32,000 nt of DNA from an uncultured bacterium (GTDB taxonomy: Bacteria; Auribacterota; JACPWU01). The position numbers and the translations under genes are program-made. Numbering within the stretch: position 1 is the first letter of the stretch; every line of letters starts with the position of its first letter. This document shows positions 4,925 to 31,709 of this stretch, one piece after another. The stretch is from assembly GCA_964640155.1 (NCBI GenBank), contig CAZXEQ010000002.1:330001-362000 (forward strand), written 5' to 3'. The notes under the pieces are model-generated. The model did not search any database. It saw only the letters and a list, made by a program, of their open reading frames with translations, and had not been told where the DNA came from.

Positions 4925-5018
4925 GATGAAACATTTTGATAGAATAATGGGCTTTAGAGGGGTGTAATTATTAGACGGGTTTTTTGATCTTTAGAATACG
5001 ATAGATGAGGTTTTTTTA

Positions 5019-5105
5019 GGAAGGGTGGCTGAGTGGTTGAAAGCGCGGGTCTCGAAAATCCGTTTCCGAGCAATCGGAACGTGGGTTCGAATCCCACCCC
5101 TTCCG
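5019..5105 (+). tRNA. tRNA-Ser (anticodon CGA)
   Basis: Hand-folded cloverleaf. Acceptor GGAAGGG/CCCTTCC. Anticodon stem CGGGT/ATCCG with loop CTCGAAA. Long variable arm TTCCGA-GCAA-TCGGAA. T arm GTGGG-TTCGAAT-CCCAC. Discriminator G. No CCA is encoded. Confidence 0.9.
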
Positions 5106-5860: not shown

Positions 5861-5934
5861 GCGCCCGTAGCTCAGCTGGATAGAGCACTTGCCTACGAAG
5901 CAAGGGGCCACAGGTTCAAATCCTGTCGGGCGCA
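5861..5934 (+). tRNA. tRNA-Arg (anticodon ACG)
   Basis: Acceptor GCGCCCG/CGGGCGC. D arm GCTC-AGCTGGATA-GAGC. Anticodon stem CTTGC/GCAAG with loop CTACGAA. T arm ACAGG-TTCAAAT-CCTGT. Discriminator A. Confidence 0.9.
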
Positions 5935-6569: not shown

Positions 6570-6623
6570 GTTGTAAATTAGTTTTTTATTTCGAATTACG
6601 ATATACGAGATACTATTTTTGAA

Positions 6624-6712
6624 GGAGAGGTGGCTGAGTGGCCTAAAGCGACGGCTTGCTAAGCCGTTGTACTGTTAATTCAGTACCGGGGGTTCGAATC
6701 CCCCCCTCTCCG
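6624..6712 (+). tRNA. tRNA-Ser (anticodon GCT)
   Basis: Acceptor GGAGAGG/CCTCTCC. Anticodon stem ACGGC/GCCGT with loop TTGCTAA. Long variable arm GTACTG-TTAATT-CAGTAC. T arm GGGGG-TTCGAAT-CCCCC. Discriminator G. Confidence 0.9.
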
Positions 6713-11579: not shown

Positions 11580-13517
11580 ATGGCTAAAAAGAAAAAAGGT
11601 TTCCCAAAAGAAATGATGCAAGGTAAGCCCTTTAAGCCAGCGATGTTTTGGATTTTATTAGGCGCAGCCCTTCTCTATCTTTTTAATATTAATAATATTG
11701 CTAAAAAGGGTGTGGATCATCCTTCCTATAGCCAATTCTTTGAGTCCGTGAAAAGTGGCAATGTGCGTGGAGTTGATCTTATGGGCGATATTGTTCGGGG
11801 TGAATATCAAAATGGACAACGGTTTTTACTCAACATTCCTAAGGAAGACAGTGCGTTATTGGCTGCGTTAAGAGAGAATGTTCGAGATTTTAATATTCGC
11901 TCGGAAAATAACCTTTGGGCCAGCCTTCTTTTTTCATTAGCCCCTATGGTGCTCTTTATTGGGTTTTTATGGTTTTTTGTTTATCGTCAAATGAAAGGGG
12001 TTGGAGGCGGTGCGCTCAGTTTTGGAAAATCTCGAGCCAAACTTTTGACCAAAGATCGGGAAAAAATTACTTTCAAAGATGTTGCAGGTGTAGATGAGGC
12101 GAAAGAAGAACTACAGGAAATCATCGAGTTTTTAAAAGACCCTAAAAAATTTCAGAAATTAGGCGGACGTATTCCCAAAGGCGTTTTATTAATGGGACCT
12201 CCAGGTTCAGGGAAAACACTTCTTGCGAAATCGGTTGCGGGTGAGGCAGATGTTCCTTTTTTTACCATTAGCGGGTCAGATTTTGTGGAGATGTTTGTGG
12301 GTGTAGGGGCTTCTCGCGTTCGTGATCTTTTTGAACAGGGGAAGAAGCATGCCCCCTGTATTATTTTTATTGATGAAATTGATGCAGTGGGTCGCCATCG
12401 TGGAGCTGGTATTGGTGGCGGACATGATGAGCGTGAACAAACGTTGAACGCTATTTTGGTGGAGATGGATGGATTTGATACACAAGAAGGCGTGATCATC
12501 ATGGCGGCTACCAACCGACCTGATGTATTGGATCCAGCTCTTTTGAGACCAGGTAGATTCGATCGACAAGTGGTTGTAGATTTACCGGATCTTCATGGAC
12601 GTTTGGGCATTTTAAAGGTGCATACCAAAAGAGTGGTTTTGGCTCAAGATATTGATCTTTCTATCATTGCACGTGGTACGCCTGGTTTTTCTGGAGCAGA
12701 TTTGGCTAATTTGGTGAATGAAGCGGCTCTTTTGGCTGCACGACATGGCAAGAAATCCATTAGCTTGCCGGAAATGGAAGAAGCCAGGGATAAGGTGCGT
12801 TGGGGGCGTGAACGAAAAAGTCGAAATCTTTCTGAAGAAGATAAAAGGATTACTGCCTATCACGAATCTGGACATGCCTTGGTTCTGCATTTGCTTCCAG
12901 AAACAGAACCTTTACATAAGGTAACGATTATTCCTAGAGGTGTCGCTTATTTGGGAGCTACCATGCAGCTTCCAGAAAGAGATAAATACACAGAATCTAA
13001 AAAAGAAATCTTAGGCCAGATTACAGGTATGATGGGGGGTCGTGTAGCTGAAGAAATTATGTTTGGAGAAATTACTTCGGGTGCGTCCAATGACATCAAA
13101 AACGCAACAACACTCGCCCGAAAAATGGTATGCGAATGGGGGATGAGTGATAAGTTAGGCCCTATGACTTTTGGCGAGCATGAAGAACATATTTTTTTAG
13201 GTAGAGAAATTTCAAGATCTGTTGATTATTCGGAATCCACAGCCATTGAAATTGATCGTGAGGTACGTCGCATCATTGATGAATGCTATCAGAGAGCCAA
13301 AAGCATTATTATAGAAAATAAAGACAAATTGATTGCCCTGGCTGAAACTTTAATCAAAAGAGAAGTGATGGAAGGCAAAGAAGTTGATGCGATTATCTCT
13401 GGGAAAGTAGTTCCTCATATCGAACCTTCTGCAAATCCTTATGACCGGATTTTAAAGAAGCGGTCTCAACAAGATGTACAGGCGATTCATGAACCCCAAA
13501 CCGAGTCTGCCCCCTGA
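11580..13517 (+). CDS. ftsH: ATP-dependent zinc metalloprotease FtsH
   Basis: Two N-terminal TM segments, Walker A GPPGSGKT, Walker [30 protein letters not shown] and zinc site HESGH. Confidence 0.97.
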
Positions 13518-14355
13518 AGTAAAATCTATTTGGAAAATTAAAGATCGAACGTTGACCTTTTCTCGGCGTCCTCTCATCATGGCTATTCTCAATGTTACTC
13601 CAGACTCTTTTTCAGATGGAGGGCGATTTTTAGATAGAGGAAAAGCAATTGAGCAGGCAATGATATTGGTTAAAGAAGGTGCGGATATTTTGGACATTGG
13701 AGGGATGTCAACACGTCCAGGTGCAGAGGAAATCCCTGTAGAAGAAGAACTGAGGCGTGTGATTGAAGTAATTCAAGCTTTGAGTTCTCAAATTAAAATT
13801 CCTATTTCTATTGATACCTATCGAGCGCAGGTTGCTGAACAGGCTTTAGCAGCGGGTGCCCATATTGTGAATGATATTGGGGCTTTAGGCCTAGATTCTA
13901 GAATGGCTTCTGTTGTGAGGGACATGGGGGCAGGTCTTATTCTGATGCATATGAGAGGAACTCCCCAGACCATGCAAAAAGACTTACATTATGAAGATTT
14001 ACTAGAAGAGGTTTCGAAATTTTTAAAGAATCGTTTACAAGTTGCTCGAGAAAATGGAATTAGTGAGGAGCAAATGGTTGTGGATCCCGGTCTTGGTTTT
14101 GGAAAAAGTTTCGAGCAAAATTTAGAAATCTTAAAGAATCTAGAGTTCTTTCATCAGATGGAACGTCCTCTTCTTGTAGGCCCTTCCCGAAAATCATTCA
14201 TTGGCCAAATCTTGCAGAATACTCCTGAAAAAAGGCTCTGGGGGACACTTGCTTCTGTCACGGCCTGTTTTTATCACAGAGCAAATATTCTTCGTGTTCA
14301 TGATGTGCTCCCTGTTTTTGAGTTTTTAAAAGTCCTTTGTGAAATTGAGAAATAG
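13474..14355 (+). CDS. folP: dihydropteroate synthase
   Basis: Motifs ILNVTPDSFSDGG, DIGGMSTRPG and VDPGLGFGK. The start is uncertain. ATG 13474 overlaps ftsH by 44 nt, and 13489 is an alternative. Confidence 0.9.
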   Translation: MYRRFMNPKPSLPPEVKSIWKIKDRTLTFSRRPLIMAILNVTPDSFSDGGRFLDRGKAIEQAMILVKEGADILDIGGMSTRPGAEEIPVEEELRRVIEVIQALSSQIKIPISIDTYRAQVAEQALAAGAHIVNDIGALGLDSRMASVVRDMGAGLILMHMRGTPQTMQKDLHYEDLLEEVSKFLKNRLQVARENGISEEQMVVDPGLGFGKSFEQNLEILKNLEFFHQMERPLLVGPSRKSFIGQILQNTPEKRLWGTLASVTACFYHRANILRVHDVLPVFEFLKVLCEIEK

Positions 14356-14365
14356 GTTTTGCTAT

Positions 14366-14490
14366 AAAAATATATTCTTTAAGTAAGAAGCGGGTCCTGA
14401 CGCTTGGCAGCCTCACCATACTTATGAAAAATTGCGCGCGGTGGGGCTTCCCCGCCAAGCGTCACCCATATCTATAAAGAACATACTTTT
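14366..14490. repeat. GC-rich palindromic element, copy E5 (intergenic folP/cdaA)
   Basis: Termini AAAAATATATTCTTTA and TAAAGAACATACTTTT are inverted. The core is GGGTCCTGACGCTTGGCAGCC...GGGGCTTCCCCGCCAAGCGTCACCC, with a 10-bp stem GACGCTTGGC/GCCAAGCGTC. It is homologous to E1-E4. Confidence 0.85.
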
Positions 14491-14585
14491 AATAAGTTCA
14501 ACCGGAAAAGTAGATTTTTGAATTTTCCGTTATCTCTTTCGAATCAAAATGAAGTAAAATCTTTTTAACAACAAAGCGAGATTTT

Positions 14586-15383
14586 ATGTCAAGCATCATT
14601 CACTTTATAGCTACTTCTTGGCGACCCGTCATAGAAGTCTCTATTTTAGCTGTCTTCTTTTACTATCTTTTTGGTTTTATTCAAGGGACACGTGCGGTTC
14701 AAGTGCTTAAGGGATTGGTCATTTTGTTGGCTATTTTCTTTGTAGCGCAACGATTAGACTTAAGTATTGTTAATTGGATTTTAGGGCGTGTCTTTCCTGT
14801 GGCAGTCATTGCACTTATTATTCTCTTTCAGCCAGAATTAAGAAAAGTATTGGCAGGGTTAGGGGGGAATCCCTTTATTCCAAGTCTCGGAAGAAATGAA
14901 GCGGTACTGGATATGATTGCAGAAACGTGTGAAATTCTCTCAAAAAAAAGAATTGGAGCCTTGATTGCCATTGAAGATGATGTAGGGCTTAAAAATTATG
15001 TGGAGAGTGGAATAAAGATTGACGCCCTTGTTTCTCAAGAACTTTTGATTACGATTTTTTTTCAGAAAACACCCCTTCATGATGGAGGAGTGATTATTGA
15101 AGGGGAGCATATTTCAGCTGCTGCTTGTCTTTTCCCTTTAACGCAACAGCCTCATATTCAAAAGTCTGTAGGTACGAGGCATCGTGCAGCCTTAGGACTT
15201 TCTGAAGAAACCGATGCGGCTGTGATTGTTGTGTCTGAAGAAACAGGCAGAATCTCTGTTGCTTTGGATGGGAAATTTGTTGAAGATCTAGATCAAGAAA
15301 CTTTAAAGAAACTTCTCAAAGTTCGGCTTATTGGAGATCAATCAAAAAAGGGTTGGTTTTATACGAGAAGAAAAAAGCTATGA
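14586..15383 (+). CDS. cdaA: diadenylate cyclase CdaA
   Basis: Three N-terminal TM helices followed by a DAC domain (LHDGGVII, GTRHRAALGLSEETDAAVIVVSEETG). Confidence 0.9.
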   Translation: MSSIIHFIATSWRPVIEVSILAVFFYYLFGFIQGTRAVQVLKGLVILLAIFFVAQRLDLSIVNWILGRVFPVAVIALIILFQPELRKVLAGLGGNPFIPSLGRNEAVLDMIAETCEILSKKRIGALIAIEDDVGLKNYVESGIKIDALVSQELLITIFFQKTPLHDGGVIIEGEHISAAACLFPLTQQPHIQKSVGTRHRAALGLSEETDAAVIVVSEETGRISVALDGKFVEDLDQETLKKLLKVRLIGDQSKKGWFYTRRKKL

Positions 15384-16321
15384 ACATTCCATCTTGGTTG
15401 CATCATAATTTTTTGCTCAAAATTTCCTCGGTGCTTTTATCCATTGCGGTATGGACCATGGTGCGAGGAGAAGTGAGGACGACTAAAGTTTTTCATCGAG
15501 TGAACTATCAACTGGAAATTCCTTCTTCCATGGGTGTCGTTGAAAAAAGTGTTCGCTTCCTCAAGATTACTCTTACAGGCCCTCGAGATGTCATGAGAGA
15601 GACATTAAAGAACTCGATTCGTATTGTTCATCGTTTAAAGGGAATTCAAGGACCAGGCGCTGTTCAATTTCAATTGTCTTCGAAGGATTTTGCATTACCA
15701 TCAGGGGTGGAACTCTTAGATGTTTCGCCTAGGTATTTAAGAGTAGTTTTAGATCGTTTGATTGATAAAGAGTTAAAAGTAAAACCTCAATTTGTAGGAA
15801 ATCCAGGACAGGGTTTTCAAATGAGAGAACACTCTGTGAATCCTACGATTGTAAAGGTGAGGGGTCCGGAAGGAAAGTTACAAAAATTAACAGAAATTGA
15901 GACACAACCTATTCTTTTGACTGGGAGAACACGTTCTTTTATTCAAACTGTTGCTTTGAAACCTCTTTTAGAAGAAATTCACCATCAAAAGGTTCAGTAT
16001 GTGGATGTGTATGTAAAAATTCAAACACAGTTATCTAAAAAAACATTTGAACATGTGCGATTGATGACATTACAAGGGAGCAAAGGGGAACCCGTCCATT
16101 TCGAACCTGCTACTGTGAAAGTGACTTTGGAAGGTCCGGGTGATTTCTTGGAGAAAATAAATGATACCGATATTCGAGCTTATGTAGATGTTGCAGATTT
16201 AAAGTCTGGGAAATATCAACTTCCAGTCAATATATTACCTATTCAAGGTACTTCTGTTGTGAATGTAGACCCTCATGTTGTAGAAGTGGAAGTAATTGGA
16301 GCATTGGAGACTGTTTCATGA
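15380..16321 (+). CDS. cdaR: CdaA regulatory protein CdaR (YbbR-domain protein)
   Basis: The ATG at 15380 overlaps the cdaA stop (ATGA), and its own stop overlaps the glmM ATG. It has one N-terminal TM segment and repeated beta-rich YbbR-like modules. Its position between cdaA and glmM supports the call. Confidence 0.75.
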   Translation: MNIPSWLHHNFLLKISSVLLSIAVWTMVRGEVRTTKVFHRVNYQLEIPSSMGVVEKSVRFLKITLTGPRDVMRETLKNSIRIVHRLKGIQGPGAVQFQLSSKDFALPSGVELLDVSPRYLRVVLDRLIDKELKVKPQFVGNPGQGFQMREHSVNPTIVKVRGPEGKLQKLTEIETQPILLTGRTRSFIQTVALKPLLEEIHHQKVQYVDVYVKIQTQLSKKTFEHVRLMTLQGSKGEPVHFEPATVKVTLEGPGDFLEKINDTDIRAYVDVADLKSGKYQLPVNILPIQGTSVVNVDPHVVEVEVIGALETVS

Positions 16322-17676
16322 TCTTAAAATTATTTGGAACAGATGGTATTCGGGGTGTAGCCAATACAGAGCCCATGACTGTTGAGATTGCATTACAATT
16401 GGGCCGAGCAGCAGCTCATGTTTTTGGAAATGAATCTAGGCGACACAGCGTTGTCATCGGAAAAGATACAAGACTTTCTGGTTACATGTTTGAAAGCGCT
16501 TTAGCAGCAGGCCTTTGCTCAATGGGCGTCGATGTATTACTTCTGGGGCCTCTTCCAACACCCGGAGTTGCTTTTATTACAAGGAGTTTAAGGGCAGATG
16601 CGGGGATTGTTATTTCTGCAAGTCATAATTCTTTTGAGGACAATGGGATTAAATTTTTTTCAAACGAAGGATTAAAACTTCCTGAAGAATTAGAGCGAAA
16701 GATAGAATCTTTGATTTCTGAAGGAACCATTACGCATATTCGACCTACAGCACATCATGTAGGTAAAGCTTTTCGTATTGAGGATGCTTTGGGACGTTAT
16801 GTGGAATTCGTCAAAAATTCATTCCCTAAGGGGATGACGTTGGATGGTTTGAAAATTGCCTTAGATTGTGCGAATGGAGCAGCCTACAAAGCTGCTCCTC
16901 TGGTGCTTCGAGAACTTGGAGCAAAACTGACTGTGGATCATAATCAGCCAGATGGAATGAATATTAATAAGAATTGTGGTTCTTTATATCCTGAGCAGAT
17001 TTGCCAAAAAGTTGTCAGAGAGCATGCGGATGTGGGAATTGCTTTAGATGGAGATGCAGATCGTGTCATTTTTTCTGATGAGAAAGGTCGAGAAGTGGAT
17101 GGCGATGATATTATGGCCATTTGTGCAAAAGATTTCTTTAAAGATTCGACACGCAAAAAGCTTCTTGTGGCGACGGTGATGAGTAATTTTGGTTTGGATA
17201 AATTGATTGAATCTTTGGGAGGACAATTGATTCGTGCTCGCGTGGGGGATCGTTTCGTCATCGAAGAAATGCTTAAGCATAATGCTTATTTTGGAGGAGA
17301 ACAGTCAGGTCATATTATTTTTAAAGATTTTACAACAACGGGAGATGGTCTTATTACGGCCTTACAAATTTTAAGAATTATGGTTGAAACTGGGAAAAAA
17401 CTTTCAGAATTATGTCAACCTTTCGAAAGATTTCCTCAGATTCTGCTAAATGTGAAAGTGAGAGAAAAGAAAAATCTTGATGAAATTGCTTCTGTACAAA
17501 AAGCTATTACACATGCCAATGAAATCTTGCAAAAACGTGGGAGAACTTTTGTACGCTATTCTGGAACAGAGCCTATTGCGCGTGTGATGGTTGAAGGAGA
17601 AAATCAAGGTCAAATTCAGGAACTGGCACAAAATATCATTACTGCGATTAAAAAAGAAATAGGGGAAAAACCGTAA
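16318..17676 (+). CDS. glmM: phosphoglucosamine mutase
   Basis: Motifs FGTDGIRG, the phosphoserine loop SASHNSFEDNGIKFF, the Mg site DGDADR, and GEQSGH. Confidence 0.95.
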   Translation: MILKLFGTDGIRGVANTEPMTVEIALQLGRAAAHVFGNESRRHSVVIGKDTRLSGYMFESALAAGLCSMGVDVLLLGPLPTPGVAFITRSLRADAGIVISASHNSFEDNGIKFFSNEGLKLPEELERKIESLISEGTITHIRPTAHHVGKAFRIEDALGRYVEFVKNSFPKGMTLDGLKIALDCANGAAYKAAPLVLRELGAKLTVDHNQPDGMNINKNCGSLYPEQICQKVVREHADVGIALDGDADRVIFSDEKGREVDGDDIMAICAKDFFKDSTRKKLLVATVMSNFGLDKLIESLGGQLIRARVGDRFVIEEMLKHNAYFGGEQSGHIIFKDFTTTGDGLITALQILRIMVETGKKLSELCQPFERFPQILLNVKVREKKNLDEIASVQKAITHANEILQKRGRTFVRYSGTEPIARVMVEGENQGQIQELAQNIITAIKKEIGEKP

Positions 17677-23146: not shown

Positions 23147-23215
23147 AAAGTATAGAATTTGTGATGAATCTTTTCAATGATTTATAACAATGTTTGCTCA
23201 ATAGATATTGTAATT

Positions 23216-23339
23216 AAAAGTGTGTACTTTTAAAAAAGTGGCAGGGCCTGACACTCGTCATCCCCACCGTGCTCATAAAAAATTGCGCGCGGCGGGGCTC
23301 CCCGCCGAGTGTCACCCGTATTATAAAGGACACACTTTT
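23216..23339. repeat. GC-rich palindromic element, copy E1 (intergenic greA/pbpC)
   Basis: The termini AAAAGTGTGTACTTT and AAAGGACACACTTTT are inverted repeats. The core has a 9-bp stem TGACACTCG/CGAGTGTCA and a central GCGCGC. Confidence 0.85.
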
Positions 23340-23349
23340 ATACATGCTA

Positions 23350-25551
23350 TCACTCAACATGAATATTCACTTTTGCTGAAGCGCCTGTTTCGTCTGTAAC
23401 GTAAATCTCATGCAGGCCAGGTTGAGGAATCCAAAAAAGAGCTTTTTCTGGACGGGTTTTCCCTATGAGAAGCCCATTCACAAACCACCATCGCCAGGAA
23501 TGAGGCGATCCTCCTATAGACTGAAGAGGTAGTTTTTGATTTTTTTGAAAAGAGGGGGCGTCTAAGAAAAATTTTTGATTTGAAGAAATAGAAGAAATGG
23601 TTAGTTTAGAAATATCTTTTTCAAGTTCAATAGATTTTGCTAAACCTTCGTCCTGGATTTGAGGCCATGGTTTATTTTTCGGCTTTAAGCAAGATAGAAG
23701 TTTTAAAGTCAAGGGTGCTGCCAAAGTTTGTCCAACTAATTCATGAGAGCCTTTCCCAAGAGAGTTTCCAAGCCATGTTACAAGTGTGTATTCATGTGTT
23801 ACTGCTACACACCAAGCATCTTTGTGTGCACTGCTTGTGCCTGTTTTCCAGGCAGGATTAAATGGAATGGCTTCAGGACAAACAGCGTAAGTTCGTTTGG
23901 GATCACTTAAGGCATTCAGTACTTGCCAGCATGCTTTTTGAGATAATATATTTTGATGGTGTGAATAAAAGTGCGGTCCTTTAAAAAGTGGCGGGTCCTG
24001 CCACTCGTCAGCCCCAACGTGCTCACTAAAAGTTGCGCGCGATGGGGCCCCCCGCCGAGTGTCACCCGCATCTGTAAAGGACACACTTTTATCTACAGGA
24101 TTTACATTTTGTGTGGCAGTGTCAGTATTAGATGTTAAAAGAGGAATATAAGTGACAGGCAGATGAATTCCTCCTCGCCCCAGTGTTGCAAAAGCTTCTG
24201 CAAGTTCTATAGGAGAAGCCTCGGCTCCTCCTATAGCTAAAGAAAGGCCATATCGATCTGGAAATTGCTCCAGTCTTTTAAATCCTAAACTTTGTAAAAT
24301 TCCAACTACGCGAGCGATGCCTATTTTAGAAAGTAAAATCATGGCGGGGATATTTCGACTTTGAGCAAGTGCTTCTGCCGCACACATAAAGCCTCTAAAA
24401 GTATGATCAAAATTGCTAGGGGTGTAGCCCTCCCAGCTCAAAGGAAGGTCTTTTAAAATTGTTGTGGGGGTGCAAATTCCTGCTTCAAAAGCGGCTGCGT
24501 AAATAAATGGTTTTAATGTAGAACCTGTTGAATAGTAACGGTTGGATAAATCTAAATTATTTGCATCGTCACATAAATTAATCGAGGCCAAACACTCAGA
24601 AGTTTGTGTGTTTAAAAGAACAAGTGAAAGAGCGTTGATCTGAGAAGATTTTAACTTTTCGAATTCTTGTTTGGCTATGAGGGTTAACTGCTCTTGAATA
24701 TCTTTATCTAAAGAGGTTTTAAATTTTCCTTGTTGAAATTTTTCCTTTAAGGTCAGTAAGATGGGCAGAATTCCTGATTTTTTTTCTTGTGGCAGAGCTT
24801 GCCATGTGGCTTGAATAGGTTCTTCAATAGCGCGTGCGTAATCTTGCTCAGAGATCATTTTTTCTGATAACATTCGAAACAAAACGTGATTACGTCTCTT
24901 AAGTGCACGTTCTATAAAACGATCTGGGCGATAGCGATTGGGACTTTGAGGAAGGCCTGCCAAAAGGGCAGCTTGGCTTAAAGAAAGATTGCGACATGAA
25001 ATTCCAAAATATCTCCAGCTTGCAGCACCTACCCCGATTAAATTCCCTCCCAAAGGACATCGATTGAGATATTCTGTCAAAATTTCATTCTTACTCATTT
25101 TTCTTTCTAATTGATAAGCACGAATAGATTCAATCAGTTTGGATGAGAAAGTCCGTGGTTTTGGATAACGTAAATGTTCAACTTGCATGGTAAGAGTGCT
25201 TGCGCCACGTATGATTTTCATGGCTTTAAAATCTTGCCAAAGAGCAGCAGCAACGCCAATCCAGTCCACTCCATGGTGTTGATAAAAACGATGATCTTCG
25301 ACGGCAACAATTGCTTTAAAAAGATAAGGGCTTATTTCTTCTTCTTTTAATGGAAAATACCATTCATTTTTTTCTGAAACAAAAGCCCCCAAAGGCTTTC
25401 CTTCTCGATCTTCTATCCAAAGGCTGGGTGGAGGTTTTGGAGTGGGAGGATAAGACCAGGAGTAAACTGCAATAGAAAACGAAATACAAATAAAACTGAA
25501 TACGCTAATAATTCCCAGTATGAAAATTTTGAAAGAATGTTTAATGGTCAT
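23350..25551 (-). CDS. pbpC: penicillin-binding protein 1C
   Basis: GT51 motifs EDHRFYQHHGVD and RGASTLTMQ. Transpeptidase motifs STGSTLKPF (SxxK), SRN and KTGTS. A C-terminal PBP1C-type beta domain. A 4-nt overlap with the upstream alpha-2-macroglobulin gene. It carries repeat copy E2 in frame. Confidence 0.9.
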   Translation of the reverse strand: MTIKHSFKIFILGIISVFSFICISFSIAVYSWSYPPTPKPPPSLWIEDREGKPLGAFVSEKNEWYFPLKEEEISPYLFKAIVAVEDHRFYQHHGVDWIGVAAALWQDFKAMKIIRGASTLTMQVEHLRYPKPRTFSSKLIESIRAYQLERKMSKNEILTEYLNRCPLGGNLIGVGAASWRYFGISCRNLSLSQAALLAGLPQSPNRYRPDRFIERALKRRNHVLFRMLSEKMISEQDYARAIEEPIQATWQALPQEKKSGILPILLTLKEKFQQGKFKTSLDKDIQEQLTLIAKQEFEKLKSSQINALSLVLLNTQTSECLASINLCDDANNLDLSNRYYSTGSTLKPFIYAAAFEAGICTPTTILKDLPLSWEGYTPSNFDHTFRGFMCAAEALAQSRNIPAMILLSKIGIARVVGILQSLGFKRLEQFPDRYGLSLAIGGAEASPIELAEAFATLGRGGIHLPVTYIPLLTSNTDTATQNVNPVDKSVSFTDAGDTRRGAPSRATFSEHVGADEWQDPPLFKGPHFYSHHQNILSQKACWQVLNALSDPKRTYAVCPEAIPFNPAWKTGTSSAHKDAWCVAVTHEYTLVTWLGNSLGKGSHELVGQTLAAPLTLKLLSCLKPKNKPWPQIQDEGLAKSIELEKDISKLTISSISSNQKFFLDAPSFQKNQKLPLQSIGGSPHSWRWWFVNGLLIGKTRPEKALFWIPQPGLHEIYVTDETGASAKVNIHVE
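23967..24090. repeat. GC-rich palindromic element, copy E2 (inside pbpC, reading frame kept open)
   Basis: It has the same termini and core as E1. It is translated on the minus strand as DKSVSFTDAGDTRRGAPSRATFSEHVGADEWQDPPLFKGPHFY, between the SRN and KTG motifs of the transpeptidase domain. Confidence 0.85.
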
Positions 25552-28500
25552 GAATGTGAATGGGTTGCAATTTTCATTGTTTCATTGTCACGACTGATGC
25601 TGTTAATTGAAATATCATACATGCATTCAGCTTTTACAGGGGGAACAGTAAAAGTTCCAGGAGTCACAGCCCTGGCTAGATAAGTATATTGTGCTTTCCC
25701 TTTGTCTAACATTTTTCCGTAGAGCACAAGACGATCATCACGAATATCGATATGACTATCCATAAATGTAGTTTGAGTAGGGTCTTTGAGAATAGAAGCT
25801 GAAGTTGCAAGCCTTGGATTTTCAATTTCAAGTCCAGCGGGAAGCAAATCTTCAATGACCATATTGTCATAACCCAAAGGACATTCTAGATGTATCTCTA
25901 CTTGTATCAAGTCTCCACTACAAATTTTATCTAGGGCGATTGCGTGTCCCTGTTGATCAAGATATCTTTTTCTCACACTTATCCCATGATCTTCATTTAA
26001 AGGAGGCTCTTTGGCAAGGCCTGTGATGCTCCATGCAACATAGCCCTTTGTTTTTTCAGCTCCTGAGATTTTAACTGAAAATTCTTTCCCATTCAGAAAT
26101 TTATTTGAAGAATTCCAGAGAAGAGAATCTCCATTCCCTGTTTCAGAAATTTTCTCTGTCCCCGCCCAAAGTTCGGCTGATGTAAAAGGTTCTCCAAAAT
26201 CTGTTTCCTTTAAATAAGACCCCAGTGCAAGAAGAGCAAAAGCATGATCTTGCGTACTTTGCCATTTTTTTTCGCCGCCGGCTTGGGCAAGTTCTTTAAC
26301 CAATTTGGGAAGGGCTGGATTTTGTGGATCAAGTTCAATCAGACTTTGAATTAAAATAGCTTGATCTCGAATAGGGGACCCAATGTTTCCAGATAGGTCT
26401 CTGTTTTGGCGAGGGTGAGGTAGATTCTGAGGAATTAACTTTAAGGCCAAATCTCGTCTGCCAGAATAAAGCCAGGCCAGGGCAAGATAAAAGCGAGTTG
26501 AAGGATGGATGCTAGAGGAGATAGAAGTTGGGAGAGTGGAAGGTCTTTGAAAAATATCTTCCAGACGTGACATCATGGATCTCTGGGGATATCCCGCTTT
26601 AGCAAGAACAAAACAGGCATAAGCCTGAATCTCTAAAATATTGGGTTGATCAGAACTTTCGTTTAATAATTTTCGAACATAATTTAAAAGTCGATCGCGA
26701 AAATCAGTTGGAATAGAGAAGCCGGCGTTTTCTGCTTCGGTGATAAAATGTGTTGCATAAACACTGGCCCAGCTCCAGCTCTCAGTATAGCCAGGCCACA
26801 TAGCAAGTCCCCCTTCAGCTGTTTGCATACTGATCAAACGATTAAGAGCTGTTTCAACTCTTTGATGAATGTATTGAGTATTAAATGGTTCTGGGAAAAT
26901 CTTCTCTCCTAGTTTTTGCAATCCAATGAGAGGAAAGGTGGTGCTAACCGTTTGTTCGGCACATCCATGGGGGTATTCATTGAGATAATCCAAAGCCTTT
27001 GTCAGATTTAAAGTGGGAAATGGAGTTACGTGAATATTCAACTGTGTTGTTCCCTCAATCCATTTTTCTGGAATTCTGATTTTAAAATCTTGATGGGGTT
27101 TAAGGGTTGCATATCCTCCTTCAGAAATTGAAGGACAGGCAGGACGAATAGGGAATATGAGATTTTGCTGATATTCTTGTCCATTGAGTTGCGCTTTGAT
27201 TTTAAGACGAGCTATTCCCATTTTATTCTTAGCTTTCAAAGGAATGGTGATCACGGTTTGAGCGTTATCGGGAATGGAGTTTGTAGTAAAATTGATTTTT
27301 CTTTCGGAGGAGTGTGGAAAATAAACAGGACTTTTATTGTCTAGTTCTATTGAGAGGTTAGCAATGCCTTCACTTCCCGTATGATTGAAAATGACAATCG
27401 GTATTTCAAAATGATCATTATTTGCAGCAAAGCGAGGAGTAGTACTTTGTAACATGAGAGGAGATTTAACAAAAATGGGCTTAGATGCTGATCCAAAAAA
27501 TTTTTTAGAATGAGCAATGGCCATGACTCGCAATTGACCTGTGAATTCTGGAAGACGAAAATCAACTTTTACGTTTCCATTTTCGTCACAGCGAAGTACT
27601 TTTGAAACAAGTGCAACATTTTTCATACGTTGTATAGACAATGGAGTTAAATGACGTGGCTCATAACCTCCATCTCCTCCCACCGAACTTTTAGGATTTA
27701 TTTTTGGAATCTCTGGGAAAAGTTCTCCATAAAGATCTGAAACAAATACGTTCAAAGCTCGATTTCGATGAAAGAATGAAAAAGGATCTGGGGGTGAGAA
27801 ATTCGTGAGTTGAAGAATCCCTTCATCTACGATTAACAAAGTGACCCTTGCATTTTTAGCAGGTTTATTTTGAGGGGTTAAAACTTTTGCTTCAACACGG
27901 ATTTTGTTTTTGGGCAGGATTTCTTTTTTTGTTTGAATCTTTATTTTCAGCTTTTGATCGTTATTGTTGATCGCAAGGCGAGTCACGCCAAAAGCACGAT
28001 GGATTTTCCATGGAGCCTTGGAATGGACGGGCTGAATCACCGTCGCACTTACATAGGCATTGGGACGATAGCTTTCTAAAATATCAATCGGAATAGATAT
28101 ATGAGATTGTGTCATGGTCAGAACTTTGTGAAAGAGAACATTCTCTGTTTCTATCGTTAAAAGAAGTTGCCCTGGGAAAGGACTGCGAACAATGACTTGC
28201 GCTTGACCTCCAACTTTCAAAGAGGACGAATATCTATTAAAGTGCGTCTTTTTAAAAAGAAGTGGGTCCTGCCGCTCGTCAGCCCCATCGTGCTCAGTAA
28301 AAGTTGCGCTCGATGGGGCCCCCCGCCGAGCGTCACCCACATTTTTAGAATCATTTTTTAATTCTTTGCCCATAGGAATAATTTCAATTTGTAATTGCTC
28401 TGGGTTCTCTCGAGAGACTGAATCCTCCCAGCCATTTTCACTGCTCACATAAAATCCATGTGAAGTGAAGCTGCCTGTTTGAGAATCTTTGATAGCAATC

Positions 28501-31289
28501 ACATAAGACCCTTCACTGGGAGGAATGATTTCAAAATGTCCTTTCTCTTGTTCTAAAATTGCATAAGAAGAAGATGCTTTTTCCAGTATACGTGTTGAGT
28601 CATAATGATAGCTCCCATCGCGATAGGTCATGATATTGTTCCAAGTCTCACGAAAAAGTTGTATCTCCATTTGTTTCGAAATCTTGGCTATTTGCCCATG
28701 CCCAGAAACACATGCAATATCAAAAACATACGGAGAACCGGGCTGAGCTTTTTGATTTTGTTGAGGACGTATGCCGACATAATATGGAACAGTATCAATG
28801 AAAACTCTTTTTGTGGCACTGACAGCCCTACCGCCCATTTCTTGAACACTTCCCAGAACAGTTAATTGCCAGGGACCCGTATACGAGGGGGTTTCTTTTA
28901 TAAGAGAGTTCGGGGGGTGATTGAGAAGAAGAGAAAGATCTACTTTCCATTCACCTTTGCCTTTCTCATTTAATTTAATCTTAGGCGACTCAATCGATTG
29001 TCCTTGGGGAAGAATACCTCCAAGTGTTTTAAAAGCATTGGCAGAATCTGTGAAAGTCCATTCTTTCCAATGTTTGGGTTTGAATGGTGCAGGATCGAGA
29101 CGACTTGAAAGTGTTGCATCTGTTCCTGAAGCAGGTTGTCCAAAAAGATAGTTTGCTGCAATATGAACTGAAAGAGATTGTGAGGATAAAGTATAGCGAT
29201 CATGGCGAATATTTTTTAAATTTAAAGCAACTTTCATTCTATCGGGAATAAATTCCTCAACAAAAAAAGAAGTTGTTCCAAATGTTTTAGCATCAGCATC
29301 TTTTGATTTTGGAAGGCCAATGGATACAGTCCAATTTCCAGTGGGAATATCTTGAGGTAATTTGACAGAAAGGTAAACCATTCCAGAACTGTCCACCTTG
29401 GCCATGTGTCCTTTCCAATTTCTCCCATCGGGCCTATAAAATTGACACCAGACAGGAAATTCTTCGGGGGTACTTAAATGAGGCCCTCGAATGATTGCCC
29501 AGAGATGGACTTTTTCACCGGGTCTATAGGCTCCACGTTCAGAGTAGACAAAAGCTTCATAGGCTTTGGATGAATAAGGACTCCCAGAAATATCAAAATG
29601 AGAATAGGAAAGTTCGCTTGTTCTTAAATCTAACCATGTCAAATGGGCGGGCTCTGTGGCAGCGTTAAAATTTGCAACTACTACGACAGGTTTCTCATCG
29701 TTAGAGGTTTCAATGGTATTGATTTTAATAATACCATTTTCATCAGAAATTCCTTCTCCCAAAAGTTGATTCTTATTGGAAAATAAGCGAATGCGTACAT
29801 GCTCCATGGGTTTACCTGTACTTAAAGACAGAGTCCAAACAAAAAGACCATGAGGGAATCTCTTGGCCACTAAACCAATGTCAGATAATGTAACAACCGT
29901 TGTATCGGATAACTCCCAGGCATATCCTTGATTCTCATTCTCGGCTTTGATTTGAATTTCATAAACCCCATTTTGCTTGAGATTTTCAGGCAGGAGCTCA
30001 TCCAAGGATAAATGAATATCCTGAACTTTATTTTTCTCCATTTCTAATTTAAGAGATTTTTGTGCGATTACTTGACTAAAATGATGAAGACCCATCCATT
30101 GATTCTCATAAACCGTGTTTCTCCAATGGACAATATTATTCTCATACATTTTTGTGAGAGTGATTTGAATGTTTTGAACATTGATAGCGTGAGCTAGAAT
30201 CATTCGATTCCCTTTAGCTCCCAAAAACCCATGATCCTGTTCAAACCACACAGAAGCCTTACGATCTGGGATAAAAACACTAAAGAGATCTTCCTGAGGA
30301 TAATTTTTCGAATCATTTTTGATGCGAGGTGCATTTACTTTCAATGCATATCGGTTTCCAGGGATAAAATCTGCCTCAAGACTGACTCCAAACCATTCTC
30401 GAATCAGTGTGAAGGGTAAAATAGGTTCAATAGAAAGAATTTCTTTTAAAATTTCTATATCGACATCATTATTGAAATAAAGTTGCAGTCTAATTTTTCC
30501 TTTTGAAGAAGAATAAGGTTCTACTTTTGTAATCATTAAGTGGCGGTTAAGGGTCAATTGCGTTTCATAAAGATTGGTTAATCCTAAAGGCCCACTAATC
30601 CCACATAGTCCTTCTCGAATCCTTACAATCACTTGAAGATAAGAGGATATATTTTGATAGAGAAAAGGAGTGGGCTCTGTCATCACGCGTATCACATTTG
30701 CGGTTACGCCTTCATAAAGGCGAAAAGGGATTTTTTGATGAACCAGAGATTCAATCTCCAGAAATTTTGCAACTTCAGTTGGAAGCATTTTGTCGTTAAA
30801 TTCAATTTCAATCATAAACTGATTTTTTTCGTCAAAGGCTGCTTGGCGTACAGATAAAATTTGCAAGGCTGGGGTTTTGACGGTTGCAGAATACGACTGA
30901 TTCAGTAAAAACCCTTCCTTGGACTTTAAAGAATGAAGAGGAAAAGTAAAAGTAAAGGCTGTTGCTTTGGGGAGGTCTTTCTGGGGTGTAAAAGTAAGCT
31001 TTCGAGTGTTCACCCATTCCCAATGTCCAGGGATGAGGTAAGACGCATCGCCTGAACTCTTGATGATGACTTTGGATGAAACATCTTCACAAACCATATC
31101 TAAATTAAATTCCCAGGATAAAACAGGCCGTGTTCCTGTCTCAATATTGTTTCCTGGGTTAAAGCGTTCTATTTTAAGAACATTGAGCGTTTTTAATTGA
31201 TAAGCATGATGAAATGCTGCCCAGGCAAGAATATTTGTAATTGCAAAACAAAAAACGGTTATCCAAAATCGTTTGTGTAACATGAACAT
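25548..31289 (-). CDS. bacterial alpha-2-macroglobulin family protein (YfhM/ECAM-like)
   Basis: This is a 1913-aa ORF with an N-terminal hydrophobic anchor, many MG-type beta domains, and the thioester motif GCAEQ. GGAGA precedes the third-codon ATG (31283) at good spacing, so 31283 may be the true start. It carries repeat copy E3 in frame. Confidence 0.9.
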   Translation of the reverse strand: MFMLHKRFWITVFCFAITNILAWAAFHHAYQLKTLNVLKIERFNPGNNIETGTRPVLSWEFNLDMVCEDVSSKVIIKSSGDASYLIPGHWEWVNTRKLTFTPQKDLPKATAFTFTFPLHSLKSKEGFLLNQSYSATVKTPALQILSVRQAAFDEKNQFMIEIEFNDKMLPTEVAKFLEIESLVHQKIPFRLYEGVTANVIRVMTEPTPFLYQNISSYLQVIVRIREGLCGISGPLGLTNLYETQLTLNRHLMITKVEPYSSSKGKIRLQLYFNNDVDIEILKEILSIEPILPFTLIREWFGVSLEADFIPGNRYALKVNAPRIKNDSKNYPQEDLFSVFIPDRKASVWFEQDHGFLGAKGNRMILAHAINVQNIQITLTKMYENNIVHWRNTVYENQWMGLHHFSQVIAQKSLKLEMEKNKVQDIHLSLDELLPENLKQNGVYEIQIKAENENQGYAWELSDTTVVTLSDIGLVAKRFPHGLFVWTLSLSTGKPMEHVRIRLFSNKNQLLGEGISDENGIIKINTIETSNDEKPVVVVANFNAATEPAHLTWLDLRTSELSYSHFDISGSPYSSKAYEAFVYSERGAYRPGEKVHLWAIIRGPHLSTPEEFPVWCQFYRPDGRNWKGHMAKVDSSGMVYLSVKLPQDIPTGNWTVSIGLPKSKDADAKTFGTTSFFVEEFIPDRMKVALNLKNIRHDRYTLSSQSLSVHIAANYLFGQPASGTDATLSSRLDPAPFKPKHWKEWTFTDSANAFKTLGGILPQGQSIESPKIKLNEKGKGEWKVDLSLLLNHPPNSLIKETPSYTGPWQLTVLGSVQEMGGRAVSATKRVFIDTVPYYVGIRPQQNQKAQPGSPYVFDIACVSGHGQIAKISKQMEIQLFRETWNNIMTYRDGSYHYDSTRILEKASSSYAILEQEKGHFEIIPPSEGSYVIAIKDSQTGSFTSHGFYVSSENGWEDSVSRENPEQLQIEIIPMGKELKNDSKNVGDARRGAPSSATFTEHDGADERQDPLLFKKTHFNRYSSSLKVGGQAQVIVRSPFPGQLLLTIETENVLFHKVLTMTQSHISIPIDILESYRPNAYVSATVIQPVHSKAPWKIHRAFGVTRLAINNNDQKLKIKIQTKKEILPKNKIRVEAKVLTPQNKPAKNARVTLLIVDEGILQLTNFSPPDPFSFFHRNRALNVFVSDLYGELFPEIPKINPKSSVGGDGGYEPRHLTPLSIQRMKNVALVSKVLRCDENGNVKVDFRLPEFTGQLRVMAIAHSKKFFGSASKPIFVKSPLMLQSTTPRFAANNDHFEIPIVIFNHTGSEGIANLSIELDNKSPVYFPHSSERKINFTTNSIPDNAQTVITIPLKAKNKMGIARLKIKAQLNGQEYQQNLIFPIRPACPSISEGGYATLKPHQDFKIRIPEKWIEGTTQLNIHVTPFPTLNLTKALDYLNEYPHGCAEQTVSTTFPLIGLQKLGEKIFPEPFNTQYIHQRVETALNRLISMQTAEGGLAMWPGYTESWSWASVYATHFITEAENAGFSIPTDFRDRLLNYVRKLLNESSDQPNILEIQAYACFVLAKAGYPQRSMMSRLEDIFQRPSTLPTSISSSIHPSTRFYLALAWLYSGRRDLALKLIPQNLPHPRQNRDLSGNIGSPIRDQAILIQSLIELDPQNPALPKLVKELAQAGGEKKWQSTQDHAFALLALGSYLKETDFGEPFTSAELWAGTEKISETGNGDSLLWNSSNKFLNGKEFSVKISGAEKTKGYVAWSITGLAKEPPLNEDHGISVRKRYLDQQGHAIALDKICSGDLIQVEIHLECPLGYDNMVIEDLLPAGLEIENPRLATSASILKDPTQTTFMDSHIDIRDDRLVLYGKMLDKGKAQYTYLARAVTPGTFTVPPVKAECMYDISINSISRDNETMKIATHSHS
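26952..26963 (-). other. thioester motif C-A-E-Q of the alpha-2-macroglobulin
   Basis: The minus-strand codons TGT GCC GAA CAA lie in frame with the ATG at 31289 (Cys is codon 1443), in the context YPHGCAEQTVS. Confidence 0.8.
28239..28359. repeat. GC-rich palindromic element, copy E3 (inside the alpha-2-macroglobulin gene, reading frame kept open)
   Basis: The core is GTGGGTCCTGCCGCTCGTCAGCCCC...GGGGCCCCCCGCCGAGCGTCACCCAC. The right terminus is degenerate. It is translated as NDSKNVGDARRGAPSSATFTEHDGADERQDPLLFKKTHF, in the same element frame as E2. Confidence 0.8.
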
Positions 31290-31361: not shown

Positions 31362-31495
31362 CTTTTCACCGTCCTTTAGGATGAGGTAAGAAACGGGGCC
31401 TGCCACTCGTCAGCCCTACCGTGCTCATGAAAAATTGCGCGCGGGGCGGGGCTCCCCCCGCCGAGTGTCACCCGTATTGTAAAGGACACACTTTT
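31362..31495. repeat. GC-rich palindromic element, copy E4 (upstream of the alpha-2-macroglobulin gene)
   Basis: The core is GGGGCCTGCCACTCGTCAGCCC...GGGGCTCCCCCCGCCGAGTGTCACCCG. The right terminus AAAGGACACACTTTT is intact. The left terminus is partly degenerate, so the left boundary is approximate. Confidence 0.75.
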
Positions 31496-31709
31496 TTACA
31501 CACGATCGGGAAAATTTTCTTAAAAACACTTTGAGATTTTCGAGAAGCAGGGTCAAGAAGAAAACAGAAGTGATTTATAAAATACGAAGTAACTCGCTGA
31601 AGGAGAGAAAGTAGGGATAAAATTTTTTTGAAAAATTATTTTACAATTAAAAAAACTTGAAGATTTTTCTAAATCTCAAGCTCGAAGTTTAAGGGATTTC
31701 TCAAAAGGA

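Follow-up and report, generated by a model that had tools for sequence, protein, structure and literature searches.

In this study, we describe a palindromic repeat of about 128 nucleotides (nt) that sits in frame inside pbpC, the gene for penicillin-binding protein 1C (PBP1C), of an uncultured bacterium; the stretch analysed, 32,000 nt of contig CAZXEQ010000002.1 and hereafter called the window, holds five full copies of the repeat. We consider it highly probable that the repeat is a non-autonomous palindromic element resembling MITEs (miniature transposable elements with inverted repeats), which inserted into pbpC after this lineage had split from its nearest sequenced relative. The gene (23350..25551, minus strand) is an open reading frame (ORF) of 733 amino acids (aa) with Transgly, Transpeptidase and BiPBP_C domains according to Pfam. 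Inside it, a repeat search placed the copy at 23965..24092 (~128 nt, plus strand), within 2 nt of the 23967-24090 given in the original prediction, and its membership in the family is a direct observation, at 91.4% identity to an 11-copy consensus. Read on the minus strand, the copy encodes PbpC residues 487-529 (DKSVSF...GPHFY; DKSVSFTDAGDTRRGAPSRATFSEHVGADEWQDPPLFKGPHFY), i.e. 43 aa rather than the ~41 first estimated, and these lie, as anticipated, between the SRN (398) and KTGTS (569) motifs. Tryptic peptides within the insert include GAPSR and ATFSEHVGADEWQDPPLFK.

The sequence of events that we envisage would be as follows. An element of ~128 nt, with terminal inverted repeats of roughly 18 nt and a GC-rich inner hairpin, would have landed in a genome of 39% GC, adding 159 nt to a length-variable loop of the transpeptidase domain. 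Because this number is a multiple of three, the frame lacks stops and the loop is variable, the gene would have stayed open and would now carry ~53 extra hydrophilic, disordered residues. A sister copy would have done likewise in an inter-domain linker of the alpha-2-macroglobulin (A2M) gene upstream. The encoded peptide would be a neutral passenger, kept because its orientation and frame give the most hydrophilic, cysteine-free product, and a transposase with its gene in another part of the genome would mobilise the element itself in trans.

Filled and empty sites in the closest relative

The closest PbpC homologue (P0002; 681 aa, 75-79% identical) is encoded on contig JAYRIK010000275 (locus L052), part of the metagenome-assembled genome (MAG) JAYRIK01, which is labelled Ca. 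Auribacterota, of the Planctomycetes-Verrucomicrobia-Chlamydiae (PVC) group, and it stands in the same gene order as in the window, namely A2M-pbpC-greA-PQQ protein. From the pbpC of L052, one segment of 159 nt (53 codons; 23960..24118, minus strand) is missing as a single gap in the pairwise DNA alignment, and the protein alignment agrees. This segment comprises the element plus about 31 further nt, with a gap placement that is ambiguous by a few nt, and the remaining PbpC homologues are likewise devoid of the inserted sequence in the protein alignment. The clean indel is thus observed directly, and the original prediction was right to call the segment, at 91% nt identity to the family consensus, an insertion and not an ancestral feature. 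Many PbpC homologues do have long loops here, and the segment might be taken for an ancestral loop whose likeness to the intergenic repeats is secondary or coincidental. However, along a stretch of about 125 nt that takes in the terminal inverted repeats, it is 86-93% identical in nt to intergenic copies, it is missing from the closest orthologue, and other homologues have loops of unrelated sequence, so that this explanation is effectively refuted. NCBI labels for this lineage disagree with one another, the closest relative being placed in Ca. Auribacterota and the next closest in Chlamydiae/Chlamydiota, both within the PVC group.

Two more sites in the same neighbourhood are occupied in one genome but not in the other. 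Between the stop of pbpC and the start of greA, a copy is present in the window (23215..23340, plus strand; repeat search), where L052 has a short, empty spacer; conversely, the stop of A2M and the start of pbpC are separated by a copy in L052, while these two genes overlap in the window. In total, three sites are filled in one genome and empty in the other, and since the positions of the repeat differ, the element has moved. As far as sequence comparison carries, such filled and empty sites are signatures of a mobile element that has been active since the lineages of the window and L052 split. The L052 copy (611-718 of that locus), in which both outer terminal repeats are missing or altered, may supply the spacer between A2M and pbpC and the translation start context of the latter.

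Further family members were found on at least four contigs of the MAG JAYRIK01 and on two Logan contigs (at least six copies outside the window). In a scan of genome contigs for the 18-nt core of the element (see below), the matches listed were mostly chance ones in high-GC genomes, and local blastn picked out four true copies in one MAG. A scan of JGI metagenomes with the pattern GTGCTCANNAAAARTTGCGCKCG gave 0 matches, so the family is absent or rare in these metagenomes, nor was it found by blastn of the element against the 22-kb locus of a more distant relative (L107).

The closest relatives are MAGs, as apparently is the source of the window, and repeats are classic sites of mis-assembly, which brings up the question of whether a repeat copy was merely mis-joined into pbpC during metagenome assembly. 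Yet the pbpC copy is identical to no other copy, the best match being 93% (on Logan contig L111) and at most 86% within the window. Besides, both junctions run directly into sequence orthologous to L052, the inserted length preserves the reading frame, and the contig that bears the insert spans 501,885 bp. We therefore regard an artefact of this kind as extremely improbable.

Anatomy of the repeat family

The five full copies in the window measure 125-131 nt. Three of them are intergenic, as originally predicted, and two are intragenic, an in-frame copy in the A2M gene having been overlooked by the prediction. Besides the copy between pbpC and greA, repeat search recovered intergenic copies between folP and cdaA (14364..14488, plus strand), which is the most diverged at 79.8% identity to the consensus, and 78 nt upstream of the A2M start (31367..31497, plus strand), the left end of which is rearranged or truncated. 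An invariant 18-nt core (CCCCGCCRAGYGTCACCC) occurs five times in the window, against 0.01 occurrences expected by chance. All five copies are in plus orientation irrespective of the strand of the gene, and four of the five fall within 8.3 kb around the A2M-pbpC operon; while the numbers are small, the same orientation and the clustering may reflect a strand-specific mechanism or local hopping. The folP/cdaA copy lies in a housekeeping cluster, ftsH-folP-cdaA-ybbR-glmM (11580-17676), whose arrangement is that of a cyclic di-AMP (c-di-AMP) cyclase operon.

Terminal inverted repeats of roughly 18 nt (ATAAAAGTGTGTCCTTTA...) bound the element, with ATAAAAGTGYGTCCTTTA ... TAAAGGACACACTTTTAT flanking a GC-rich interior, and the core reaches 69% GC in a window of 38.7% GC. 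When folded as single-stranded DNA, the pbpC copy gave the best structure of all copies (-31 kcal/mol, z -6.1). When ten copies are aligned, a single imperfect hairpin with 44 pairs takes up the entire element, and 91.8% of cells are paired. Nine of the pairs have changed on both sides (20 cells), none of 500 shuffles reached the observed values, and controls with slid alignments attained 38-57% pairing; from these three observations it follows that the hairpin is maintained by compensatory change. Its helix 1 is formed by the terminal repeats (columns 3-21 with 115-132; 18 pairs, 85% of cells paired) and includes five of the doubly changed pairs. Compensatory change in a DNA palindrome could reflect selection for transposition competence or, just as well, correction within the hairpin.

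The consensus has at least one stop in each of the six frames and contains no transposase ORF. Neither at gathering thresholds nor at E<=1 did the element match any Rfam family, the sole Rfam hits in the window being three tRNA genes elsewhere (5019-5105, 5861-5934 and 6624-6712), two of which share their 5' part as a direct repeat (D5; 5011-5045 / 6616-6650). Across Rfam, Pfam and NCBIfam, no known family corresponds to the element, and both the family and its host lineage are new in this respect. A scan for promoters and terminators around two repeat copies yielded nothing above shuffled background. Other kinds of inserted sequence were rejected for the pbpC segment: a group I or II intron, for lack of a match in Rfam (gathering or E<=1); an intein, as the insert has only 43-53 aa where at least 130 aa are required and there is no Pfam match; and an RNA gene, which was ruled out in the absence of an Rfam match.

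An intact host gene and a loop of variable length

The original prediction that the pbpC ORF is unbroken was confirmed by several lines of evidence. The window protein scores 517.5 bits against the PBP_1c equivalog model (NCBIfam TIGR02073; cut-off 494.2 bits), and its assignment to the PBP1C class further rests on the architecture of transglycosylase (TG), transpeptidase (TP) and BiPBP_C domains and on linkage to A2M. The match to the hidden Markov model is interrupted at residue 476. All catalytic motifs are directly seen to be intact (EDHRF 85, GASTLTMQ 116, STGSTLK 341, SRN 398, KTGTS 569), as are 67 of 67 invariant columns in an alignment of 107 PbpC sequences, which includes the window protein itself. 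Directly upstream, the gene for a bacterial A2M of 1913 aa (25548..31289, minus strand; ORF and Pfam) retains its thioester motif (CAEQ at 1443), and its stop overlaps the pbpC start by 4 nt. This yfhM-pbpC (A2M-PbpC) operon linkage is an established one (PMC4498604).

An AlphaFold2 model of PbpC, built with 107 homologues, reached a mean predicted local distance difference test (pLDDT) score of 89.2 and a predicted template modelling (pTM) score of 0.83. The sole segment with pLDDT <50 (residues 476-527) coincides with the insert; it has no secondary structure, its flanks exceed 87, and predicted disorder is hence confined to the insert, which falls into a hypervariable loop. Foldseek related the model to class A PBPs, namely Staphylococcus aureus PBP2 (2olv) and Escherichia coli PBP1b (5hlb). 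The loop runs from helix to helix, from RGG461 to C541, and varies from 10 to 127 aa among the 107 homologues (median 29). Pseudomonas aeruginosa PBP1a (4oon), the best sequence match in the PDB, has a long acidic segment at the same position. Given this variation in length and the long segment of PBP1a, the site appears to be naturally permissive.

In E. coli, PBP1C is an accessory PBP that the cell can do without, and with the insertion site in a hypervariable loop, the earlier designation of pbpC as an essential-type gene was generous. That same dispensability would make a loss of function tolerable, and the TP domain does harbour the insert, which separates its SxN motif from its KTG motif; the gene might hence be an early-stage pseudogene, or encode an enzyme with glycosyltransferase activity only, whose ORF merely happens to be still open. 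We find this unlikely, as all TG and TP motifs and the 67 invariant columns are intact, the ORF is open over 733 codons, the rest of the AlphaFold2 model is of high confidence, and at this very site, loops as long as 127 aa are found in homologues that seem intact.

The loops of other homologues deepen the impression of a permissive site. The loop DNA of L107 (11439-11563) forms a hairpin and is read in frame (z -6.0), and the same is true of L108 (11456-11608; z -13.2), where a stretch of 153 nt shows 77% self-complementarity, and of L109 (11537-11726; z -8.3). None of the three is related to the element in the window, while the inserts of L108 and L109 have arms in common. A 21-mer of this arm (GTACTCCGGGAGAGGGCAGGG) recurs in more than 120 metagenome contigs, none of which encodes PbpC, and among the contigs listed (L112-L231), the arm stands in inverted pairs in 118 of 120 (e.g. 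L123, 242-262 and 5189-5209). The L108/L109 arm belongs to an unrelated family of GC-rich palindromic repeats that is widely dispersed. Peptides of the type SPSPGTPGEGRGEG, which correspond to the translated arm, occur in the loops of at least seven PbpC homologues. All four long PbpC loops that were examined as DNA thus proved to be hairpin DNA, two of them with arms of the GC-rich family, and from the hairpin loops in the window, L107 and L108/L109 it follows that no fewer than three unrelated kinds of palindromic DNA have been taken into the PbpC loop.

A second in-frame copy, its peptide and comparable systems

The overlooked copy in the A2M gene (28236..28360, plus strand; repeat search) is 82.4% identical to the consensus and encodes A2M residues 977-1018 (LKNDSKNVGDARRGAPSSATFTEHDGADERQDPLLFKKTHFN). 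It corresponds to a clean 51-aa gap in the 56%-identical A2M of L107 (GCA_016178005.1, a MAG labelled Chlamydiae) and is placed in the linker between the bMG6 and A2M_BRD Pfam domains, which is variable in all homologues. Both intragenic copies have the same orientation relative to the gene and are read in the same frame of the element (2/2). The two are 86% identical in nt and 61% in aa (27 of 44 aligned residues) and have the peptide GD(T/A)RRGAPS.ATF.EH.GADE.QDP.LFK in common. In the consensus, a T6A4 run in the terminal repeat holds the stop of this frame; the two intragenic copies, with T5 at that place, are thereby rid of it. The resulting product is the most hydrophilic one available, with a grand average of hydropathy (GRAVY) of -0.75, an isoelectric point (pI) of 6.0 and no cysteine, while the peptides from the other near-open frames are basic (pI 10.7-11.5) and include cysteine. 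It is plausible from these properties that a hydrophilic, cysteine-free product acted as a filter on the frame.

With both genes of one operon carrying the module in the same frame and orientation, it is tempting to ask whether a ~43-aa module was recruited into the two periplasmic proteins, A2M and PbpC, where it would confer a property in common, for instance a joint partner, a tether or a protease-sensitive site. The 27 identical residues would fit such a co-option, as would the finding that A2M is the only large protein with the module in 1.84 billion representative proteins. However, the three codon positions differ from the consensus about equally often (4/4/3 in the pbpC copy, 8/8/6 in the A2M copy), and 61% aa identity is about what 86% nt identity would give without selection. 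Furthermore, the PbpC of the closest relative is without the module and appears no less intact, that intergenic copies encode this peptide frame too needs no explanation beyond their shared DNA, and the module is predicted to be disordered. The even spread speaks for a tolerated passenger rather than a selected module, with no sign of purifying selection on the peptide, and we judge co-option to be very unlikely.

When a profile of the two peptides was searched against these 1.84 billion proteins, it retrieved the window A2M and four ORFs of 33-63 aa (P0172-P0175), a count that is a lower bound, as the database is clustered at 50% and PbpC itself is hidden in it. Two of the four were looked up and both lie between genes on Logan contigs (L110, 2063-2233; L111, 315-506); P0172-P0175 are probably spurious gene calls on copies of the element, in the same frame. 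Two other hits, P0176 and P0177, were discarded as chance resemblances to internal repeats of unrelated proteins. The outcome of this search argues against an invasion of the proteome on the scale known from Rickettsia.

Several points weigh against a MITE-like insertion as we propose it. The repeat unit (125-128 nt) falls short of the intragenic indels (159 and 153 nt) by about 28-31 nt, the repeat copies have no consistent target-site duplication of 2-10 nt, and the 32-kb window holds no transposase or autonomous element with matching inverted repeats. Moreover, two intragenic copies would share their frame by coincidence in about 1 of 3 cases, given three near-open frames, which is not significant, and that the insert-bearing PbpC has retained its transpeptidase activity is an assumption. 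Concerning the flanks, the intragenic indels span approximately 23960-24118 (pbpC) and 28224-28376 (A2M). There is a weak and imperfect flank similarity of about 13-25 nt (per-copy p 0.05-0.84; Fisher-combined 0.024), and on either side of the pbpC copy there is a match to a 13-mer of the L052 target (ACAACAAAATGTA; p 0.013), which is suggestive at best. The extra flank length could stem from a long target duplication that has decayed or from drift in a variable loop, and we claim neither.

In many respects, the element recalls the Rickettsia palindromic elements (RPEs; RPE-1 to RPE-10, described by Ogata et al. 2000 and summarised in PMC10969869): a palindrome in the range of about 100-150 bp, it lies between genes as well as in frame inside unrelated protein genes, its intragenic copies use one frame and so yield a conserved peptide (here 2/2 copies), and its insertion sites may, by prediction, be compatible with the fold of the host protein. 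On the other hand, the window family has two documented intragenic copies and clear terminal inverted repeats, its host belongs to the PVC group and not to Rickettsia, and its peptide has no match in NCBIfam or Pfam at E<=10, be it to an RPE or to any other family model. NCBIfam, we presume, holds a model of the RPE1 domain. From what its sequence tells, the element behaves like an RPE and belongs to no RPE family, much as the original prediction had it.

The view that such behaviour is unusual was overstated, though. In-frame fusions of MITEs with ORFs have been called ‘not unusual’ in a 2024 review, with ERIC, BOX, QMITE and Anabaena MITEs as examples and RPEs as the extreme case (PMC10969869), and in-frame insertions of QMITE2 are documented in Coxiella (PMC5896051). 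With these bacterial MITEs (Coxiella QMITE1/2, intragenic ERIC, pneumococcal BOX and those of Anabaena; PMC5896051, PMC10969869), the window element shares its small size, the absence of a transposase, terminal inverted repeats, dispersed copies, presence/absence polymorphism, and the occasional in-frame insertion that adds tens of residues to a host protein. It differs in its sequence family, in the shared orientation of all five window copies, and in that these copies lack short, well-defined flanking direct repeats and that no parent insertion sequence is found within the window. The REP (repetitive extragenic palindromic) sequences and bacterial interspersed mosaic elements (BIMEs), which are mobilised by REP-associated tyrosine transposases (RAYTs) (PMC3733652), are also dispersed, GC-rich, imperfect palindromes with compensatory changes, and the orientation bias in the window is compatible with a strand-specific mechanism. 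REPs, however, are 20-40 bp long, extragenic and headed by GTAG or CGTC, whereas the window element has 128 nt, AT-rich ends and intragenic copies, and no RAYT gene lies within the window. As for the landing site, P. aeruginosa PBP1a (4oon) resembles the insert-bearing PbpC in that the ...GG helix and the pre-KTG helix are separated by a long segment, acidic and of low complexity, yet this segment is a lineage feature not shown to derive from a repeat.

A more far-reaching reading would combine several of these observations: an undescribed, RPE-like family that invades proteins through one preferred hydrophilic and disordered frame, a PbpC loop that serves as a landing pad across phyla and has time and again taken up unrelated palindromic repeats in frame, and target duplications of ~20-30 nt that may set the family apart from known MITEs. 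That all of this should hold together is conceivable, but we put it forward only tentatively and would rather doubt it.

In summary, the phenomenon as such is already known, while the element family and the host lineage in which we find it are new. With the present work, ‘selfish DNA inside proteins’, for which Rickettsia is the best-known case, gains a new repeat family from a little-known lineage of the PVC group, together with two natural in-frame insertions in one operon and an orthologue with an empty site. For genome annotation, it means that copies of the element are called as probably spurious proteins of 33-63 aa (P0172-P0175). The PBP1C loop, which tolerates 10-127 residues, is a candidate permissive site for protein engineering and illustrates how proteins come to vary in length through repeats.

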